DNA of 26,995 bases from a virus (taxonomy: Duplodnaviria; Heunggongvirae; Uroviricota; Caudoviricetes). The translations under genes were made by a program, and so were the position numbers. A model generated the notes under the pieces. That model saw only the letters and a list, made by a program, of their open reading frames with translations, was not told the DNA's origin and ran no database searches. The first letter of the stretch is position 1. Every line of letters begins with the position of its first letter. Below are positions 1 to 25,399 of the stretch, in pieces. Where the stretch lies: IMG/VR virus record IMGVR_UViG_2724679542_000005; one strand, written 5' to 3'.

Positions 1-185
1 TTCATGGCCATATCAATGATTTTCTGGTGCGTACCGGGCTGAGAGGCGGTGTAAGTGAACTGTAGTTGCCATGTTTTACGGCAATGAGAGCAGAGATAGC
101 GCTGATGTCCGGCAGTGCTTTTGCCGTTACGCACCACGCCTTCAGTAGCGGAGCAGGAAGGACATCTGATGGAAATGGAAGCCAC
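1..185 (-). CDS. insA: IS1 InsA, 5' part only (GTG start at 185, gene runs off the window)
   Basis: Mirror image of the right-hand insA (26500-26775); same 55-nt offset from the IS1 end; GTG start inferred by symmetry. Confidence 0.8.
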
Positions 186-240
186 GCAAGCACCTTAAAA
201 TCACCATCATACACTAAATCAGTAAGTTGGCAGCATTACC
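1..240 (-). mobile_element. IS1 insertion sequence, partial (cut by window start); terminal inverted repeat ends at 240
   Basis: Reverse complement of 218-240 is the IS1 terminal repeat (ggtaatgctgccaacttactgat); region 1-240 is the reverse complement of 26445-26684, judged from identical ORF-track translations. Confidence 0.9.
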
Positions 241-260
241 CTTTATGCCATGTCCTTATT

Positions 261-289
261 GACCCCGTATATTACGGGGTCGTTTTTGT
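261..289 (+). terminator. Hairpin gaccccgta/tacggggtc followed by GTTTTTGTG; candidate intrinsic terminator just outside IS1
   Basis: Perfect 9-bp inverted repeat with a 3-nt loop and a T-run, seen directly. Confidence 0.4.
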
Positions 290-606
290 GCGGAATTAAA
301 AACGATATCCTGCTGAGAACATAAACACCCACGGATCGAGGCGTACGCTATCATGTTGCTGTGCACCGCCCAGCTTATAATTGGCGGTGGTATCGATATC
401 CATGTACCAGACTGACATGTTTTAAAAAATGCAATAAGACATTGTATCTGAAAGAAAAAACAGGATTTTGAGGCGCTTTTTTATACCGTTTTTCCGTGTT
501 TTTAACTGCCTGATTTTATTGAAATCTTTTTTAGTTTTGCAGAAAGGATTTTTTGCTCGATCGCTTTAATTTTATACATTCCTGATAACGGAAATTTTTT
601 TGCCCG

Positions 607-636
607 TTGACAGTTTTTGTTCTCCGGGGCTATATT
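607..636 (+). promoter_or_regulatory. Candidate sigma70 promoter, TTGACA (607-612), 18-nt spacer, TATATT (631-636)
   Basis: Consensus -35 and near-consensus -10 hexamers seen directly; about 240 nt upstream of the rha start. Confidence 0.4.
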
Positions 637-878
637 CCTCACACAACCGCAAAATCGGTTGTCGGGATTGGCGTCTCGGATAACATCACAACGCATAGCC
701 GCGTTTGCGGTTTTTTTTGCGTTAAGCATTGCCACATTCGCATTATGGTGGGGCGTGCAGGGGCGGAGAAATCCGCGCCGGGTTTTGTGATGACCGGTTA
801 CGCCAACCCTGTACGTCTCACCACCTCCCTGATTGGCGTCAGAGGTGGTGATCATCCAATTAATTGGAGTCATCACAT

Positions 879-1436
879 ATGAATACAGCTATAACTTTTT
901 CTAACGAGTCACCAAAAGTCTTTTTCAAAGATGGTCGCCTGGTTACCACCTCTCAAGCTGTTGCCGACTACTTCGATAAACAACATAAACACGTTTTAGC
1001 TAAGATTGACACACTCGACTGCTCTCCCGAATTTACATCAGCCAACTTTTCGGCCGATGTTCAGACTGTCGAAATTGGCAACGGCGCAGAACGTGAATCA
1101 CGATGCTACCTGATCACAAAAGACGGCTTCATGTTCCTCGTAATGGGATTTACTGGCAAAAAAGCAGCCAGACTAAAAGAAGCTTACATTGAAAAATTTA
1201 ACGCAATGGAAGAAGAACTCCACAAACGTCCTCCTGCAGCACAAAACTCCCCCGCCCCAAATAATGGATGCGCATTACTGATCCACTTCGATAAACACGG
1301 TCAGGTCGAGTTCACAGAAAAAGTCCCCGCCGATGCGATGGTATGCACGCTGGAACGGTTTAAATTTTATCTGGAGCAACATGGGTGGATCGTTGCCCGT
1401 AAAGAACAATTGGTGGAAAGGTTGATGCGGTTTTAA
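879..1436 (+). CDS. rha: Phage regulatory protein, Rha family (N-terminal Rha domain, unrecognised C-terminal half)
   Basis: ORF track 864-1436; ATG at 879 with GGAG 9 nt upstream. Rha-family motifs FDKQHKHVLAKIDTL and YLITKDGFMFLVMGFTGKKAARLKEAYIEKFNAMEEEL recognised from memory of that family. Confidence 0.75.
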   Translation: MNTAITFSNESPKVFFKDGRLVTTSQAVADYFDKQHKHVLAKIDTLDCSPEFTSANFSADVQTVEIGNGAERESRCYLITKDGFMFLVMGFTGKKAARLKEAYIEKFNAMEEELHKRPPAAQNSPAPNNGCALLIHFDKHGQVEFTEKVPADAMVCTLERFKFYLEQHGWIVARKEQLVERLMRF

Positions 1437-1445
1437 TGAATGCAA

Positions 1446-1476
1446 AACCCCGGATGATCACCGGGGTTAATTTTAT
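1446..1476. terminator. Bidirectional hairpin terminator (aaccccgg / ccggggtt) between convergent rha and the small minus-strand ORF
   Basis: 8-bp GC-rich stem with 7-nt loop; T-run on the plus strand and TTTTG on the minus strand. Confidence 0.5.
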
Positions 1477-1562
1477 CGAGCGTGATTGCCGCTAATCGCC
1501 ATCGCTCTGATTGAGCGTAAATCATTCAGGTTATTCAGTTCTTCCTTCTGCTCTCGCTGACG

Positions 1563-1733
1563 TCAATAAATCCCATCATTGCGATCAACCTCATCCTTAA
1601 CCATTGATGCGAGCAGTTCTTCCAGTTTCTGCGCTGACAGCTTTACCTGGTGATCTTCAGCATCTTCCCGGGCTATTGTGGTTCGCGCAGTGGCTGATTT
1701 TGCTGACATCACCACAGGGGGCAGACGGACCAT
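1563..1733 (-). CDS. Hypothetical small acidic protein (56 aa, or 48 aa from the ATG at 1709)
   Basis: Part of ORF-track ORF 1563-1844; start chosen at 1733 where GGAGG lies about 10 nt upstream; no recognisable domain. Confidence 0.3.
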   Translation of the reverse strand: MVRLPPVVMSAKSATARTTIAREDAEDHQVKLSAQKLEELLASMVKDEVDRNDGIY

Positions 1734-1797
1734 TGAACCATGGCCTCCGGAACAAATAAGGGCAAAAATAACAACCACTATCGAAAGCTCACAAACT

Positions 1798-2013
1798 AAC
1801 CGCAGCACGTTCCTGCATACGACGTGTCTGCGGCATAATCCCAATGATTACTCCCTGACAGGATTTGCAGGCCACTCAATATCAGGTGCAGTTGATGTAT
1901 CAACACGATTCAACAATACCCGATATTTATTCCATGCCTCCAGCAACGATCTTTCTTCCTCCGTTGCGATTTCCAGATCTACAGCATCCTGCAGTGGCGC
2001 AATATACTCACTG
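1798..2013. repeat. Direct repeat copy A (~216 bp): tfa 3' end plus downstream hairpin
   Basis: About 90% identical by eye to 2848-3062, including the ccgcagcacgt...acgtg(t)ctgcgg hairpin and the tfa C-terminal coding sequence. Confidence 0.85.
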
Positions 2014-2117
2014 AATTCCTGGATGTAGAACTGTGTGGTGACGGTCTTCCAGCCATTCGGCTCCTGCTGTATCGAAGCATACCAGGCTATTTCAATATCG
2101 CTATGCTGCGGCAGCAT
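1848..2117 (-). pseudogene. Tail fibre assembly gene fragment (C-terminal ~55 aa near-identical to Tfa, diverged N-terminal part, no full-length gene)
   Basis: ORF-track 89-aa product ends ...[51 protein letters not shown], almost identical to the Tfa C-terminus at 2897-3481. Confidence 0.7.
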
Positions 2118-2144
2118 TTAACCCCTTGTAATTCATCGCCATAA

Positions 2145-2173
2145 TTGATTTAATTCACAAATAAAACTATAAC
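2145..2173 (+). promoter_or_regulatory. Candidate sigma70 promoter for the methyltransferase gene, TTGATT-N17-TATAAC
   Basis: Hexamers seen directly; the -10 ends only 12 nt before the ATG at 2186, implying a very short leader. Confidence 0.3.
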
Positions 2174-2185
2174 ACGGTGAAATCA

Positions 2186-2842
2186 ATGAAAAAAAACACA
2201 GATGATGGGGCTAAAATTTACACACCACTTACCCTAAAGCTTTATGACTGGTGGGTTTTGGGAGTATCAAATCGGCTTGCATGGGGATGTCCTACAAAGG
2301 AACACCTTCTTCCACACTTTCTGGAACATGTAGGTAACAACCATCTGGATATTGGTGTTGGAACTGGGTTTTACCTTACTCACGTACCTGAGAGTAGTCT
2401 GATATCTTTAATGGATTTGAACGAAGCTAGCCTGAACGCGGCATCTACAAGGGCTGGGGAATCAAAAATTAAACATAAAATTAGCCATGATGTTTTTGAA
2501 CCTTATCCCGCGGCGTTACATGGTCAATTTGATTCCATTTCCATGTTTTACCTTCTTCACTGCCTGCCTGGAAATATATCTACAAAAAGCTGTGTAATAC
2601 GCAATGCGGCGCAGGCCTTAACTGACGATGGAACTCTATACGGAGCCACAATTCTTGGCGATGGAGTTGTGCACAATAGCTTCGGTCAAAAACTGATGCG
2701 CATTTACAATCAGAAAGGCATCTTTTCAAACACAAAAGATTCCGAAGAAGGCTTAACACATATACTCTCAGAGCATTTCGAGAATGTTAAAACCAAGGTT
2801 CAAGGTACTGTAGTAATGTTTTCCGCTTCAGGGAAAAAATAG
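2186..2842 (+). CDS. Putative class I SAM-dependent methyltransferase (low-GC cargo gene; substrate unknown)
   Basis: ORF track 2177-2842 (GTG); ATG at 2186. Glycine-rich SAM-binding motif I LDIGVGTG; no DPPY/NPPY or PC-type DNA methyltransferase motifs. Lower GC than the structural genes by eye. Arrangement recalls tfaD-ybcY-tfaX of the E. coli K-12 DLP12 prophage (from memory). Confidence 0.7.
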   Translation: MKKNTDDGAKIYTPLTLKLYDWWVLGVSNRLAWGCPTKEHLLPHFLEHVGNNHLDIGVGTGFYLTHVPESSLISLMDLNEASLNAASTRAGESKIKHKISHDVFEPYPAALHGQFDSISMFYLLHCLPGNISTKSCVIRNAAQALTDDGTLYGATILGDGVVHNSFGQKLMRIYNQKGIFSNTKDSEEGLTHILSEHFENVKTKVQGTVVMFSASGKK

Positions 2843-2847
2843 CATCC

Positions 2848-3062
2848 AACCGCAGCACGTTCTTGCTTAAGACGTGCTGCGGCATAATCCCAATGATTAC
2901 TCCCTGACAGGGTTCGTAGGCCACTCAATATCAGGTGCAGTTGATGTATCAACACGGTTCAGCAACACCCGATATTTTTTCCAGGCTTCCAGCAATGAGG
3001 TTTCTTCCTCCGTTGCGATTTCCAGATCTACAGCATCCTGAAGTGGCGCAATATGCTCACTG
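2848..3062. repeat. Direct repeat copy B (~215 bp): 3' end of intact tfa plus downstream hairpin
   Basis: See copy A. Confidence 0.85.
2850..2882. terminator. Long hairpin (ccgcagcacgt ... acgtgctgcgg) between the methyltransferase stop and the tfa stop; possible bidirectional terminator
   Basis: 11-bp perfect inverted repeat seen directly; the T-run on the minus strand is about 10 nt away, so termination efficiency is uncertain. Confidence 0.4.
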
Positions 3063-3481
3063 GCTACCTGCATCAGGCTGTTTTTTGTTTCTTCCGCCTC
3101 CCGGATCCGGAACAGTTTTTCTGCTTCTGCATCTTTCACCCAGGCTGTGCCGTTCCACTTCTGAAACTCCCCTTCCGGCGATAACCAGGTAACATTTTCC
3201 GGTAACGGACCGAGTTCAGAAATAAATAACGCGTCCCCTGACGCTACGTCATAAACCGTTTTACCCCGATGGTCTTCAACGAGATGCCACGATGCCTCAT
3301 CACTGTTGAAAACAGCCACGAAGCCTGCCGGAATATCTGGCGGTGCAATATCGGTACTGTTTGCTGGCAGACCTGTATGAGGCGGAATATATGCATCACC
3401 TTCACCAATAAATTCATTAGTTCCGGCCAGCAGATTATAAATTTTTATGGTCCGTGGTTGTTCACTCATTCTGAATGCCAT
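2897..3481 (-). CDS. tfa: Tail fibre assembly protein Tfa
   Basis: 194-aa ORF-track product matches lambda Tfa from memory; start ATG overlaps the stf stop (TAATG). Confidence 0.9.
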
Positions 3482-6400
3482 TATGCAAGCCTCACAATAT
3501 AGTTAAATGCGATGTTTTTGACGGTGTTTTCCGCGTTACCAGCAGCGTTAACGGTGATGGTATGTCCATGTGAACCAATCGCAACGGAGTGCGTATGAGC
3601 ACCAATACCGACAGTATGTGCGTGTGCACCTGCGCTTGCAGCAGTACCCGATACAGAGTGCGTATGAGCGCCTGCAGAAGAAGTGTTAACACTGTATTTA
3701 GAATAATCAGGTGATCCACTTCCCGGAGCACCACTGGAACCACCTGAAACAAATGTCATCGAATGGGTATGTGCACCGGCTGAAGCAGCCGTACCGCTAA
3801 CACTATGGGTATGCGCACCAGTGTTATTCGTGGATTTAGTGCCGTAATCAAACGACGATGTGGTTTTCGTCCCCAAATCCGTACTGGATACGCTGGCGCT
3901 GTGGGTGTGTGATTTAATGCCGTCCTGTTCCTGAGACAATACGGCTCGATCACTGGCGGGCTTGCCCTTAATCGTCCAGCCACGCATATCAGGGATCACG
4001 CCTGACGGATAAGCGGCTGCAAGTTTCGGGTAAGCAGATTTGTCAAAAGTCTGCCCCTGCATCAGGGCATAACCAGACGGAACGGTATCTGATGGCCACG
4101 GGATTGGTGCACCGACTGGATAAAACTCTGCAGGAGGATGAGCCGAGGTGTAAAGCTGCGCCCACGGCGACCAGTTTGCGTCGGTCGTATCCCGTCGTGA
4201 ACGAATAAATGCCGGAGCATGAGCACCGCTTGTACCACTCCAGCCGATGAGTAACTCACCTTCGCCAACGGCTGTCATCCCTTTCAGGTGAATGATATTT
4301 CCATACGCTGTTGGATATCCGTTGTTATACACCTCGTATAACTCAAGACCTGTTGCCCCCTGCGTATTGTCTGTCAGCGCGGTTACCCGACCTTTTGAAG
4401 ACAGATTAACTGATGATACTGCTGTTCCACCTGACGGTAACGCCCCGATCTCTGATGCCGTTGGCTTATTTCTGGAGTTATAGTCCCTTCGCCAGCCAGG
4501 TGAATAATCTGTTCCGTGATTAATATAGGTAAACTGGGCGTTAGTTGTTCCACCACCAGTGGAGGTGGTCGGTGTGGTAATGCGGATCGTCATCGCTGAC
4601 TTTATCCCCATTACTTCAATGACAGCTCCGGCGAGATGAATATTACCGCAGCCAGTATCAGTAATGATTTTATTATTGCCATAAGACCAGGAACCCTTGC
4701 ACATCCAGTATGGATGGTTAAATGCTCCCTGAGAATCCAGCCACTCGATAAACTGTGCAGTCGTCCAGTTTCCTGTTGTTGTGCTTACTGACCCACCGAA
4801 GGCACGGCAGGCACCAATATTTTTCGTAAAGGTGTCTTTGCCAGGGATATCCGCACCGTTCTGATCTTTCTGCAGACGTTTCTCAGCATTGTCATTGGCT
4901 GCTTTTACTGCCTTTGGCGTTGCCGCCAGCGTTTCAGACGTGCTGTTGGTCGCGCTGCTTAGCTGGATTATCCCTTTCTGTGCTGTCGTTGCATCCTGTG
5001 CGGTGTATTTCCCGTTAGCCAGGTCATACGCGGCCTTAACGGCTTTTGGCGTTGCCGCCAGTGACTCGGAAGTGCTGTTGGTCGCACTGCTGAGCTGTAC
5101 TATCCCCTTTTTCGTCGTGCTCGCATCCTCAAGCGCCACGGCGGATGCAATATCCTCTGCCCGTTTTGCCGCTGTCTCGGCGCGCGTTGCTGCAGATTCC
5201 GCCGTACTTTTGCTCTGAGCTGCCGCCGTCGCACTGCCAGCTGCCTCTGTCGCCTTCGTGGATGCCGTCGTGGCGCTACCCTTCGCTGCTGACGCCTGTC
5301 TGGTCGCCTCATCTTTTGAAGCAGACGCCGATGAGGCCGATGACGACGCCGAACTGGCTGACGATGCGGCAGCCGTTTTTGAGGATTCTGCGCTGGTTTC
5401 CGACGCTTTCGCGTTCGTTTCGGATGTCTTCGCTGCGGAAGCAGACCTCGCTGCTGCGCTGGCCTGTTCAGTGGCTTCGCCAGCCTTCGTTGTGGCTGTT
5501 GAAGCAGACGATGCGGCGCTTTCTGCCGATTTTCCGGCGGCGGTGGCACTGGCTGAGGCCTGCCCGGCACTTGTTGACGCTGCACTGGCAGACGACGCAG
5601 CCGCTGTTTTTGAGCCTGCCGCAGCCGAGGCGCTCTGTCCCGCTGCCGTTTCAGAAGACCTGGCGTTCGTCTCTGACGTTTTTGCCGCCTTCGCGGAATT
5701 TCCTGCCGCTGTTGCCGAGGAAGCTGCGCTACTGGCGCTCGAGGATGCGTTCGTTTCTGATGATTTTGCCGCCTCTTTTGAAGCCGCCGCATCCCGGGCT
5801 GAGGTGGCAGCTTCTGACGCTTTCGTAGTCGCGGTGGATGCAGAAGTGGCTGCTGATTGTTGTGACGCTGCAGCATTCGTTTCTGACGTTTTCGCGGCAC
5901 TGGCACTGGTAGCTGCCGCGCTTTTTGAGGACTCTGCAGCGGCAGCACTTTTTGATGCTTCAGTGGCCTTTGTTGATGCCGTTCCTGCGCTGGAAGTCGC
6001 TGACTGAGCCGACGACGCGGCCTGTCCGGCTGACGTGCTGGCTGCGCGTGCTGAGCCTGCAGCATCAGTCGCATGGGTTGCCGCCTCACGGGCTGATGTG
6101 CTGGCATCACTGGCTGACTTCTTCGCGGCTGCCGTGTTCTGTGCCACCACGGACGCGTTACGCGCCACCTCTTCCACCATCAGCTCAAAACGGCGCAGTG
6201 CCTCCGGACGGGCATCATCCTCCGTCATGGCACCGAGAAAATCATTCAGCGTACCGGGTCGGGAATCTTCATACACGGTGATGGTCCCGGCATGTGACGG
6301 CGGGAATCCTTCCACCAACAGAATAACGCTGTACTGACCGTACTCAACGTCCATGCTGTAACGCCCGGCTTCATCCGGATTTTCAGATGCCAGCGTGTTC

Positions 6401-6504
6401 ACCACCACCGTGGTACTGTTACGTTTTGCTTTCAGCTGGATTGTGCAGTTCTGTACCGGTTTTCCTGTGCCGTCTTTCAGTACACCTGAAATTTTTACTG
6501 CCAT
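3481..6504 (-). CDS. stf: Side tail fibre protein Stf (1007 aa, mosaic; intact reading frame)
   Basis: ORF track 3481-6510; ATG at 6504 gives [26 protein letters not shown]..., the lambda Stf N-terminus; C-terminus ...[31 protein letters not shown] with GAHTHS-type His repeats. Confidence 0.9.
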
Positions 6505-6514
6505 ATTCACCCCA

Positions 6515-6541
6515 CAAAAAAGCCCGCCTGAACCGGCGGGC
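6515..6541 (-). terminator. Intrinsic terminator after lom (gcccgcc stem followed by T6 on the minus strand)
   Basis: 7-bp GC stem and T-run seen directly, 28 nt past the lom stop. Confidence 0.6.
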
Positions 6542-6568
6542 TGTCATAACACTGTGTTACCTGGCTAA

Positions 6569-7168
6569 TCAGAATTTATAACCAACACCCACGATGAACC
6601 CGTCAGTGCGCCAGTCACCACTGCCGGAGCCTTCATAAGCGACATCAATGGCCACGGATTCGGTCGGGTTAAACTGCACGCCAGCTCCCCACGCCAGAGA
6701 CGTGTTGCTGTGGCGACCGTCATCACTTCCGGTCAGCACATCGTGCTTTTTCCCCTTGTTGTCAGTTACGCGGAGATAATCCCCGGAGAAAGTCGACACA
6801 CGGCTGTAAGCCACACCCGCCATCGCATACGCGCTGAACCATTCATTCACGCGCACAGACGGCCCCGCCATTACGCTGAACCAGCGGTTACGAACGGAAT
6901 CTTCATGCCAGCGGGTATCGCTGTAACGGGTAATCTGGCGATTCTTGTCTCCTGCATAGCTGAACGACGTCACCATCCCCAGTGTGTCCGTAAACTCATA
7001 ACGGTATTTCACGTTAATCCCGTTCAGATCATCACTGCCGGGAACGTTCGTCCGGGCATGAAGATACCCCGCGCTCAGCGTGGACTGATGTTCAGACGCC
7101 CATGCAGGCGCACCGGATACGGCCAGACAAATGGCTGCGGACAAAATGGCGGCATAAAGTTTACGCAT
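6569..7168 (-). CDS. lom: Outer membrane protein Lom (Ail/OmpX/PagC family moron)
   Basis: 199-aa ORF with signal-peptide-like N-terminus and C-terminal ...GVGYKF; matches lambda Lom from memory; GAGAGG ribosome-binding site upstream. Confidence 0.9.

Positions 7169-21718: not shown

Positions 21719-25399
<3,681 letters not shown>

Follow-up and report, generated by a model that had tools for sequence, protein, structure and literature searches.

A methyltransferase gene between direct repeats of the tfa 3' end in a lambda-like prophage, a probable patchwork of successive recombinations

Described systems at the end of tail-fibre operons

The moron is an established concept in lambdoid phages (Juhala/Hendrix), and cargo loci occur downstream of tail-fibre genes, as in the exchangeable effector loci of O157 prophages. 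Tail-fibre switching by invertible segments is known from the G segment of Mu, the C segment of P1 and the P segment of e14. Here we analyzed a 26,995-nucleotide stretch of DNA from a virus of the class Caudoviricetes (IMGVR_UViG_2724679542_000005, the whole of which is referred to as the window), in which a methyltransferase gene is enclosed by direct repeats of the end of tfa, the tail fibre assembly gene.

A sequence-only reading of this DNA had likened it to the layout tfaD-ybcY-tfaX of prophage DLP12 of E. coli K-12. The K-12 block (NC_000913, 581,6xx-583,1xx) exists and is 97.5% identical at the nucleotide level to positions 1871-3335 of the window, with the same gene order and strands, tfa (-), methyltransferase (+) and a tfaX-like ORF (-), and with the divergent ybcY/tfaX spacer and its promoter hexamers in common. 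The architecture is therefore recurrent, as had been suspected, and the unique core of the cassette was found at 4893 places in 3844 of 5426 complete E. coli genomes (~70%) and in 14 phage records. The two loci differ in their state of preservation, as ybcY of K-12 is a pseudogene (ATA at the conserved ATG, and one A fewer) whereas the methyltransferase gene of the window is intact, and tfaX of K-12 is cut to 61 aa by a premature stop whereas the corresponding chimeric ORF of the window is intact at 89 aa. In addition, the N-terminal part of tfaD is rearranged in K-12, where the distal tfa copy is cut at the equivalent of position 1871 and followed by appY/ompT DNA; unlike it, the distal copy of the window runs through its stop codon and hairpin into a DUF4376 remnant at the end of an ompW-site prophage.

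The b region of lambda offers a second parallel, in which a homologous hairpin follows tfa and recurs in direct orientation at 24,161-24,219, where it retains its native downstream flank; the two copies enclose ea47, which is on the opposite strand. Lambda differs in that the repeat spans only ~42-59 nt and leaves out the tfa coding sequence, that ea47 takes the place of the methyltransferase as cargo, and that there is no fragment of the small gene that we call X (see below). As with morons, the window has a single gene of atypical GC content with its own predicted promoter and a flanking hairpin, in a variable region after the tail-fibre genes, and its cassette is present in some related prophages and absent from others. 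It differs from them in lying within the scar of a fusion and in having its hairpin in common with tfa, which is not a simple insertion between phage genes. The invertible segments of Mu, P1 and e14 likewise have tfa-family genes and repeats at the end of the tail-fibre operon, but with inverted repeats, a serine invertase and alternative stf C-termini, whereas the window has direct repeats, no invertase and no second stf.

Anatomy of the repeats, the chimeric ORF and the methyltransferase gene

The block follows stf (3481..6510, - strand), which encodes a side tail fibre of 1009 aa with Pfam domains phage_tail_N, Phage_fiber_2 and Collar and is named by PGAP 'prophage tail fiber N-terminal domain-containing protein' in a near-identical annotated locus (L001), and an intact tfa (2897..3481, - strand; 194 aa; Caudo_TAP, E 3e-45), which together with its downstream hairpin is 93% identical to lambda at the nucleotide level. 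On the other side lies a DUF4376 pseudogene remnant (1473..1797, - strand), annotated by PGAP in L001 and in cassette-free loci and containing an internal stop in translation, this being what natively follows tfa in prophages of this type.

The proximal repeat (2848..3062, - strand), found by repeat search and alignment, comprises the last 54 codons of tfa, the stop codon (2897-2899) and a hairpin; the distal repeat (1798..2012, - strand) comprises the last 54 codons of a second tfa allele, its stop codon (1848-1850) and a hairpin at 1800-1833. In both copies the codons correspond to positions 75-130 of Pfam Caudo_TAP. A repeat search of the window paired 1828-2024 with 2877-3073 (91% identical) and 1798-1826 with 2848-2876 (90%), and between 1798-2024 and 2848-3073 205 of 227 aligned columns are identical (90.3%). 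MAFFT alignment showed one 1-nt indel near 1827, after which similarity is lost abruptly. In a codon-level comparison the homology proper stops at 2012/2013 and 3061/3062, the 11 further bases of the repeat search being chance matches. The sequence-only reading, which had estimated by eye two ~215-bp direct repeats about 90% identical, each with the last ~55 codons of tfa and a long hairpin, was thus accurate also in its coordinates, and the similarity extends beyond the hairpin through the tfa codons. An Rfam match to IS009 (2940-3138), for which only the proximal copy reached the threshold, was rejected as an explanation of the repeat, as it falls wholly within tfa coding sequence.

The 54 shared codons differ by 9.5 synonymous and 4.5 non-synonymous changes (dS 0.31, dN 0.037, dN/dS 0.12). 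These values mark the copies as separate alleles of tfa whose divergence took place under purifying selection. The copies contain three identical runs of 35-40 bp each. The part of the distal repeat at 1798-1868 matches cassette-free tfa genes of the DUF4376 context, and its variants at 1908-2012 were found in none of eight full-length tfa genes examined. The distal repeat of the window may date from the fusion itself, or it may be a subsequent recombinant in which a DLP12-type tfaX passes into a native tfa end, with the switch in the interval 1869-1907.

The distal tfa tail belongs to a TfaX-like chimeric ORF of 89 aa (1848..2117, - strand; phrog_2341, E 4e-61), which opens with X' (2013..2117, - strand), 35 codons from the start of a phrog_3893-family gene that continue in frame into the tfa tail. 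Residues 3-37 match phrog_3893 (E 3.3e-7) and residues 29-87 match tfa families. BLASTP aligned X' with a 79-aa protein of Klebsiella phage Kp4882-3 (53% identity, E 2e-13), and tblastn matched it to Ayreon, Klebsiella phages and HK225_029. The sequence-only reading had taken the ORF for a tfa fragment with a differing N-terminus; the C-terminal tfa tail holds, whereas residues 1-35 match phrog_3893, HK225_029 and the Kp4882-3 protein and not Caudo_TAP, so that an alternative tfa allele was discarded. No microhomology was evident at the X::tfa junction. The first 61 residues of the ORF are exactly those of K-12 TfaX. Besides the premature stop of K-12, other carriers show a frameshift (IAI39), a replaced C-terminus (PhiR26, ev243) or no ORF at all (KKo009), and the chimeric ORF is most likely a decaying by-product and not a working gene. 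The name "TfaX" and the PGAP pseudogenes called "tail fiber assembly protein, missing N-terminus" thus designate the start of a phrog_3893 gene fused to a tfa tail. A PGAP "DinI family" fragment annotated in IAI39 (+ strand, ~2019-2099) was rejected as an antisense translation of X; the over-long 160-aa "DinI" CDS of phage Eeyore is the same artefact.

Between the repeats, on the opposite strand, is an intact ORF for a YbcY-family class I SAM-dependent methyltransferase (2186..2842, + strand; 218 aa from the conserved ATG, with an alternative in-frame GTG start at 2177). Its GC content, 41.2% compared to 54.8% for the whole window and 48-55% for tfa, stf and window, bears out the description of a low-GC gene. 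The product matches phrog_2132 (E 4e-157) and Pfam families Methyltransf_12, 23, 25 and 11, is 99% identical to the main E. coli cluster of 6589 sequences, and is annotated YbcY in the copy of phage PhiR26_1. An AF2 model (pLDDT 91) had as its top 50 structural neighbours lipid, small-molecule and natural-product methyltransferases, the best with TM 0.62-0.66 at ~15% identity, and none of the 50 was a DNA-acting enzyme. In Pfam only generic small-molecule methyltransferase families matched; PADLOC gave one marginal match (mad2, E 0.0096) and no stretch above its cut-off; and searches of NCBIfam and PDB sequences gave only sub-threshold matches (CpaM, RquA, PmtA, JHAMT, UbiG). A role as a DNA methylase (anti-restriction) or in defence is unsupported by Pfam, NCBIfam, PADLOC and the structure search alike, and the enzyme probably acts on a small molecule or a lipid. 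Our literature searches found no functional study of ybcY or tfaX.

Upstream of the gene is an AT-rich divergent spacer (2118..2185; 29% GC) carrying a candidate ybcY promoter, TTGATT-17-TATAAC at 2145-2173 (+ strand), which was read from the sequence; a promoter consensus scan made no call there. Identical hexamers in the K-12 ybcY/tfaX spacer are listed as an RpoD-holoenzyme SELEX site with H-NS (PMC3946193). Expression would be from its own predicted, H-NS-silenced sigma-70 promoter, and the gene is most likely a moron-type cargo gene.

The proximal hairpin (2850-2882), between the convergent tfa and methyltransferase genes, starts 8 nt past the methyltransferase stop codon and folds at -23.9 (+) and -28.5 (-) kcal/mol (z -5.6 and -4.3), compared to -18.5 and -24.1 kcal/mol for the distal one. 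Lambda retains the hairpin after tfa with one compensatory stem pair. The proximal hairpin is a probable terminator common to both genes, a role that we word as putative because there is no canonical adjacent U-run on either strand and a terminator scan called nothing at this copy and only a short inner stem at the distal one.

Origin of the block and exchange among prophages

Intermediate arrangements were found in other genomes. A Citrobacter locus matches window positions 2031-2854 at 92% identity and contains a full-length X (80 aa), a UmuD-like ORF, the methyltransferase gene and then DinI, with no tfa sequence on either side of the methyltransferase gene. X encodes a small phrog_3893 protein, with a UmuD-like gene following it in Eeyore and Kp4882-3; a spacer with a LexA-box-like palindrome precedes X in HK225, Eeyore and Kp4882-3, and in HK225 and Eeyore the far side of this spacer is occupied by DinI. 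In Salmonella and Enterobacter the methyltransferase orthologues (56-65% protein identity) are stand-alone chromosomal genes: an Enterobacter copy with non-phage neighbours is 69% identical to window positions 2124-2813 and has upstream an exact TTGATT with a diverged -10 element (TGTTAC), and a Salmonella copy (L014) is likewise chromosomal. The earlier proposal that the gene was captured by recombination between tfa alleles does not withstand these tfa-free loci; because of them we place capture into the DinI/X region first and the repeats later. The Citrobacter arrangement could instead be derived, with a full-length X regained via recombination.

We consider it probable that the region is a patchwork of successive recombinations in the variable accessory region that extends from the tail-fibre genes to the end of the lambda-like prophage, and not a purpose-built cassette. 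In a first step, a methyltransferase gene of enterobacterial origin, stand-alone and equipped with its own promoter, would have entered a phage accessory module between the divergent DinI and X. Loss of DinI would then have left the gene converging on tfa, with the hairpin in common to both. Third, an illegitimate crossover may have fused X, at codon 35, to the tfa of a second phage, at codon 141, importing the tfa tail, hairpin and downstream DNA of the latter and thereby creating the ~215-bp direct repeat. Lastly, the conserved tfa 3' end would have served as a homology patch for RecA- or Red-type exchange between co-resident prophages, moving the block among them and swapping flanks on both sides. 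The order of these steps rests on parsimony.

Breakpoints that bear on the last step were observed on both sides. Homology to the window ends distally at 1871 (DLP12, Kati) or 1893 (PhiR26, ev243, IAI39, O157-like) and proximally at 2882 and 2888 (Kati and the O157-like locus, where the methyltransferase gene keeps its hairpin) or 3016 (ev243, IAI39). The window differs from L001 by one base over 600-2962, with mismatches starting at 2963, within the proximal repeat. In the O157-like locus yciGFE and catalase lie between tfa and the hairpin, as does a DNA invertase in Kati, between tfa and the methyltransferase block; in Ayreon the methyltransferase gene is deleted. Lambda is known to recombine with the 88-96% identical stf-tfa segments of Rac and Qin via Red-beta or RecA (PMC3945230). 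The mosaic breakpoints inside the repeats support later exchanges of the block, as read from these sequence comparisons.

The repeats might alternatively be a device for deletion and exchange, with homologous recombination popping the methyltransferase gene out or in and leaving cassette-free tfa-DUF4376 loci as its products, a reading that we regard as unlikely. A synthetic deletion product was matched in one piece, end to end, in 20 genomes, which also shows, with the carriers above, that related prophages exist with and without the insert; all four loci examined are distal-type to 1868 and proximal-type from 1908, the pattern that a crossover in the 39-bp identical run 1869-1907 would give, and recombination of lambdoid phages at such divergence has been demonstrated experimentally (PMC3945230). 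One cassette-free locus (L028) has the same tfa protein allele as L001 (WP_130060636.1). On the other hand, three identical runs of 35-40 bp were on offer, but a single one of them contains the switch of all four loci, and the pattern recurs in a far more divergent prophage at another chromosomal site (L009; left flank 92.4%, tfa 5' part 85%). All eight full-length tfa genes examined are proximal-type at nearly all informative sites from 1908, so that the cassette-free loci look like ordinary tfa alleles. These loci lack the ash-Rha module and differ from cassette-bearing ones by 2-8% in the neutral left flank (~2% for those at the ompW site), where the window is identical to L001 and to the cassette-bearing loci. 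Given these diverged flanks, no recent repeat-mediated deletion is documented among the four cassette-free loci whose flanks were compared; of the suggestion that the repeats could delete or exchange the cassette, exchange is the part that the breakpoints support.

It is very improbable that the repeat arose in situ, by long target duplication or replication slippage at insertion of the methyltransferase gene with the spare copy decaying. The repeats are direct, abut the insert and have the same hairpin, but their ~10% difference is mostly synonymous, fitting divergence as two working genes, a piece of a foreign gene precedes the tfa tail in the distal copy, and in Citrobacter the methyltransferase gene adjoins an intact X without any tfa repeat; the low dN/dS and the foreign N-terminus led us to reject this duplication. 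There is also no transposase or integrase nearby among the window ORFs or in the L001 annotation. A transposable or integron-type cassette, which would have identical target duplications or attC, is likewise not supported by repeats of 215 bp that are 90% identical and differ mainly at synonymous sites. We give practically no credence to the distal piece as a relic of a second stf-tfa set, tandem or once invertible as in Mu, P1 or e14 and mostly replaced by the methyltransferase gene, although Kati has an invertase, as do HK225 and Eeyore in the same accessory region. The repeats of the window are direct, no inverted repeat lies nearby other than the hairpin stem, positions 1-7,000 of the window and L001 contain no recombinase ORF, no stf fragment occurs in 1-3480, and upstream of the distal tfa tail is X and not tfa or stf.

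Significance for lambda-like prophages

The block is already known: it is annotated in K-12, and most E. coli genomes carry it. It is an ordinary scar left by mosaic recombination among phages. Three small points are clarified here, namely the fused make-up of "TfaX", the antisense nature of the PGAP "DinI family" fragment, and the probable source of the methyltransferase gene, the enterobacterial chromosome via a DinI/X accessory module. It is doubtful that accessory genes of lambda-like phages dock preferentially at the tfa 3' end with its hairpin, and that this end is more than one survivor of random illegitimate recombination. On that reading, its duplicates would have come to bracket opposite-strand cargo, namely ea47 (lambda) and ybcY (DLP12-like and ompW-site prophages), with the modules of the O157-like locus and Kati lying between tfa and the hairpin, and a specific mechanism would be implied, for example a switch of template or a break at the hairpin. 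YbcY might also be a functional enzyme of lysogenic conversion with a lipid or small-molecule substrate, which the pseudogene state of the K-12 copy would have kept from notice; if the methyltransferase were active in conversion in wild E. coli, this would be of moderate interest. The locus provides a clean natural example of a conserved gene end guiding later prophage-prophage exchange.

Anatomy of the locus

The minus strand of the window reads as the end of a lambda-like prophage (J, lom, stf, tfa), with the side tail fibre gene stf at 3481-6510 (-) and the tail fibre assembly gene tfa at 2897-3481 (-). A repeat search returned two direct matches, 1828-2024 versus 2877-3073 (91%) and 1798-1826 versus 2848-2876 (90%), and pairwise alignment of the distal and proximal copies (1798-2024 versus 2848-3073) gave 205 identical positions out of 227 (90.3%), a single 1-nt indel and an abrupt drop in similarity beyond the repeat end. 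When the codons are read, homology proves to stop at 2012/2013 in the distal copy and 3061/3062 in the proximal one, so that the repeats of about 90% identity described in the sequence-only reading (1798-2013 and 2848-3062) are real and accurately placed. Also as described there, either copy carries the tfa 3' end, comprising the final 54 codons, the stop and a strong hairpin (proximal, 2850-2882, -23.9/-28.5 kcal/mol, z -5.6/-4.3; distal, 1800-1833), and between them, on the opposite strand, lies a low-GC gene, an intact class I SAM methyltransferase (2186-2842, +; Pfam Methyltransf_12/23/25/11; 41.2% GC versus 54.8% for the whole window). An 89-aa ORF (1848-2117, -) ends in the tfa tail.

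The window starts within an IS1 copy (1-240), whose terminal inverted repeat ends at about 240 and which adjoins a 3' remnant of ompW (296-418, -) that marks the attachment site of the prophage, next to the trp operon. Two RNAs, isrK (RF01394) and C4 antisense (RF01695), immediately precede genes of the ash and Rha families (643-717, 741-828 and 864-1436, all +). Together they form at the prophage end a P1/Gifsy-type antirepressor control module that is absent from prophages L006-L008, which are cassette-free and lie at the ompW site. A match to Rfam IS009 (RF02111) spans the whole family at 2940-3138 (-), with 227 bits, wholly within tfa coding sequence; what is listed as an "sRNA" family appears to be conserved coding DNA of tfa.

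The methyltransferase and the chimeric ORF

The AlphaFold model of the methyltransferase is confident (pLDDT 91), and its nearest solved structure is a bacterial phosphatidylethanolamine N-methyltransferase (E 8e-12, TM 0.62-0.66), followed by juvenile hormone acid methyltransferase, NodS, phosphoethanolamine methyltransferases and natural-product methyltransferases; no DNA-acting enzyme was found among these nearest structures. Sequence-family searches gave sub-threshold matches only, and PADLOC a single marginal match. The best reading is a putative moron-type cargo enzyme with a small-molecule or lipid substrate. The hexamers of a candidate ybcY promoter, TTGATT-17-TATAAC, are found at 2145-2173, and in K-12 the same hexamers are listed as an RpoD-holoenzyme SELEX site where H-NS also binds (PMC3946193). 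Positions 2174-2176 read ACG in the window, where related loci have ATG, the start used by PGAP. The methyltransferase is probably unaffected, because translation more likely begins at the ATG at 2186, which the Enterobacter and Salmonella orthologues share.

The distal fragment had been taken for a tfa with a differing N-terminal part, an assignment that its matches contradict. Caudo_TAP (Pfam) covers only residues 31-86 of the 89-aa ORF; residues 3-37 match phrog_3893 (E 3.3e-7), share 53% identity with the beginning of a Klebsiella phage Kp4882-3 protein 79 aa long (E 2e-13) and more weakly match HK225_029 and relatives. The fragment is a chimera of the start of a small phrog_3893-family phage gene, here called X, and the tfa tail, joined in frame at F35|S36 (2012/2013). 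X is divergent from DinI in HK225 and Eeyore, with a LexA-box-like palindrome in the intervening spacer; a LexA-box-like spacer likewise precedes X in Kp4882-3, and a UmuD-like gene comes after X in Eeyore and Kp4882-3. The PGAP call "DinI family, missing C-terminus" in IAI39 (window 2019-2099, +; L019 3495-3575) was rejected as an antisense translation of the X start, and the 160-aa "DinI" CDS of Eeyore is over-long through the same artefact. The chimeric ORF has not stayed intact in all carriers: it is stopped in K-12 (61 aa), frameshifted in IAI39, replaced at its C-terminus in PhiR26 and ev243, and missing from KKo009.

In Salmonella and Enterobacter, homologues of the methyltransferase at 56-65% protein identity stand alone in the chromosome, with non-phage neighbours; the Enterobacter locus aligns with 2124-2813 and has retained TTGATT upstream, while its -10 element has diverged. 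A Citrobacter freundii contig (DADEYN010000063, L022) carries 2031-2854 at 92% identity, and at 3700-5000 one of its strands encodes a UmuD-like ORF together with full-length X (80 aa), while the methyltransferase and then DinI run divergently on the other. Neither side of this unit holds tfa sequence, nor do tail-fibre genes occur within 4 kb. This is the arrangement expected before the X::tfa fusion, and a methyltransferase standing free of tfa repeats contradicts the proposed capture by recombination between tfa alleles.

Exchange and possible deletion at the tfa end

Over the 54 shared codons the proximal and distal tfa ends show dS 0.31 and dN 0.037, a dN/dS of 0.12, which means that the two had already diverged as functional genes by the time they came together. 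Homology of the window to other carriers stops inside the repeats or at a repeat edge: at 1871 (DLP12, Kati), 1893 (PhiR26, ev243, IAI39, the O157-like locus), 2882 (Kati, with an invertase beyond), 2888 (the O157-like locus, with yciGFE-like genes and a catalase between tfa and hairpin) and 3016 (ev243, IAI39, with a different fibre module beyond). In the O157-like strain ERL06-2497 (L021, 4366-7148) the yciG/yciF/yciE-like stress module and manganese catalase, placed between tfa and the hairpin-methyltransferase unit, are another cargo at the same tfa/hairpin boundary.

The near-identical annotated prophage locus L001 occupies the same chromosomal site (ompW/trp) and differs from the window by one base across 600-2962; mismatches start at 2963, within the proximal repeat, and the tip of stf is different. 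At 3634-4300 the C-terminal (receptor-binding) region of stf differs sharply between these otherwise near-identical prophages, which points to a recent swap of the fibre tip. Red- and RecA-dependent exchange of lambda with the 88-96% identical Rac and Qin stf-tfa segments has been measured experimentally (PMC3945230). The distal repeat copy of the window may be either the original fusion product or a later recombinant.

Loss of the cassette through the repeats was the other suggested outcome. A synthetic deletion product was matched end to end, as a single piece, in 20 genomes. The four cassette-free loci inspected, of which three lie at the ompW site and one at uspF/ompN, are all distal-type to 1868 and proximal-type from 1908, consistent with a crossover somewhere in the identical 39-bp stretch 1869-1907. 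Against this, identical stretches of 35 bp and of 40 bp were available too, the switch interval coincides with the breakpoints of DLP12 and PhiR26, the eight full-length tfa genes compared all carry proximal-type variants at almost every informative site from 1908 onward, and in the neutral left flank the cassette-free loci depart by 2-8% from the window and L001, themselves identical there. For these reasons the cassette-free loci look, from their sequences, like either ordinary alleles of tfa or the outcome of old events; exchange is borne out by the homology breaks within the repeats, and recent deletion is not. Phage Ayreon lost the methyltransferase through an internal deletion of 2148-2806 that was not mediated by the tfa repeats; what its locus (L010, 2739-3087) retains is a remnant of the 3' end of tfa with the hairpin, the terminal ~36 nt of the methyltransferase gene and the beginning of X.

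Lambda (NC_001416) has the same bracketing motif in miniature. Its tfa and following hairpin align with 2848-3579 at 93% identity, and the hairpin occurs twice in direct orientation (22,575-22,608 and 24,161-24,219), bracketing ea47 on the opposite strand. Both copies fold, differing by one compensatory stem pair; the second has a stem-loop identical to the distal hairpin of the window and retains its native downstream flank.

Spread of the block and probable order of events

The K-12 layout cited in the sequence-only reading was correct: DLP12 is annotated tfaD(+), ybcY (-, pseudogene), tfaX(+) and aligns with 1871-3335 at 97.5% identity. The architecture is also recurrent, as proposed, since the unique core of the cassette (2025-2847) is present in 3844 of 5426 complete E. 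coli genomes, at 4893 places and at most four per genome. Among complete E. coli genomes, 373 cover at least 80% of the 2.2-kb segment 1400-3600, 1503 have the junction of methyltransferase, hairpin and long tfa (2700-3200), and 1679 have a distal junction of the window type (1700-2200). The gene is found in 14 phage records, all Escherichia (at least 97.7% protein identity), including ev243, 2G7b, the PhiR series, Kati and Turner.

In the best-supported mechanism, a chromosomal methyltransferase would have been captured into a DinI/X accessory module, one illegitimate X::tfa join would have made the repeat, and homologous exchange at the conserved tfa end would have followed. The window architecture is the already annotated, very widespread tfaD-ybcY-tfaX block, and the locus represents ordinary lambdoid mosaicism of a kind already known.
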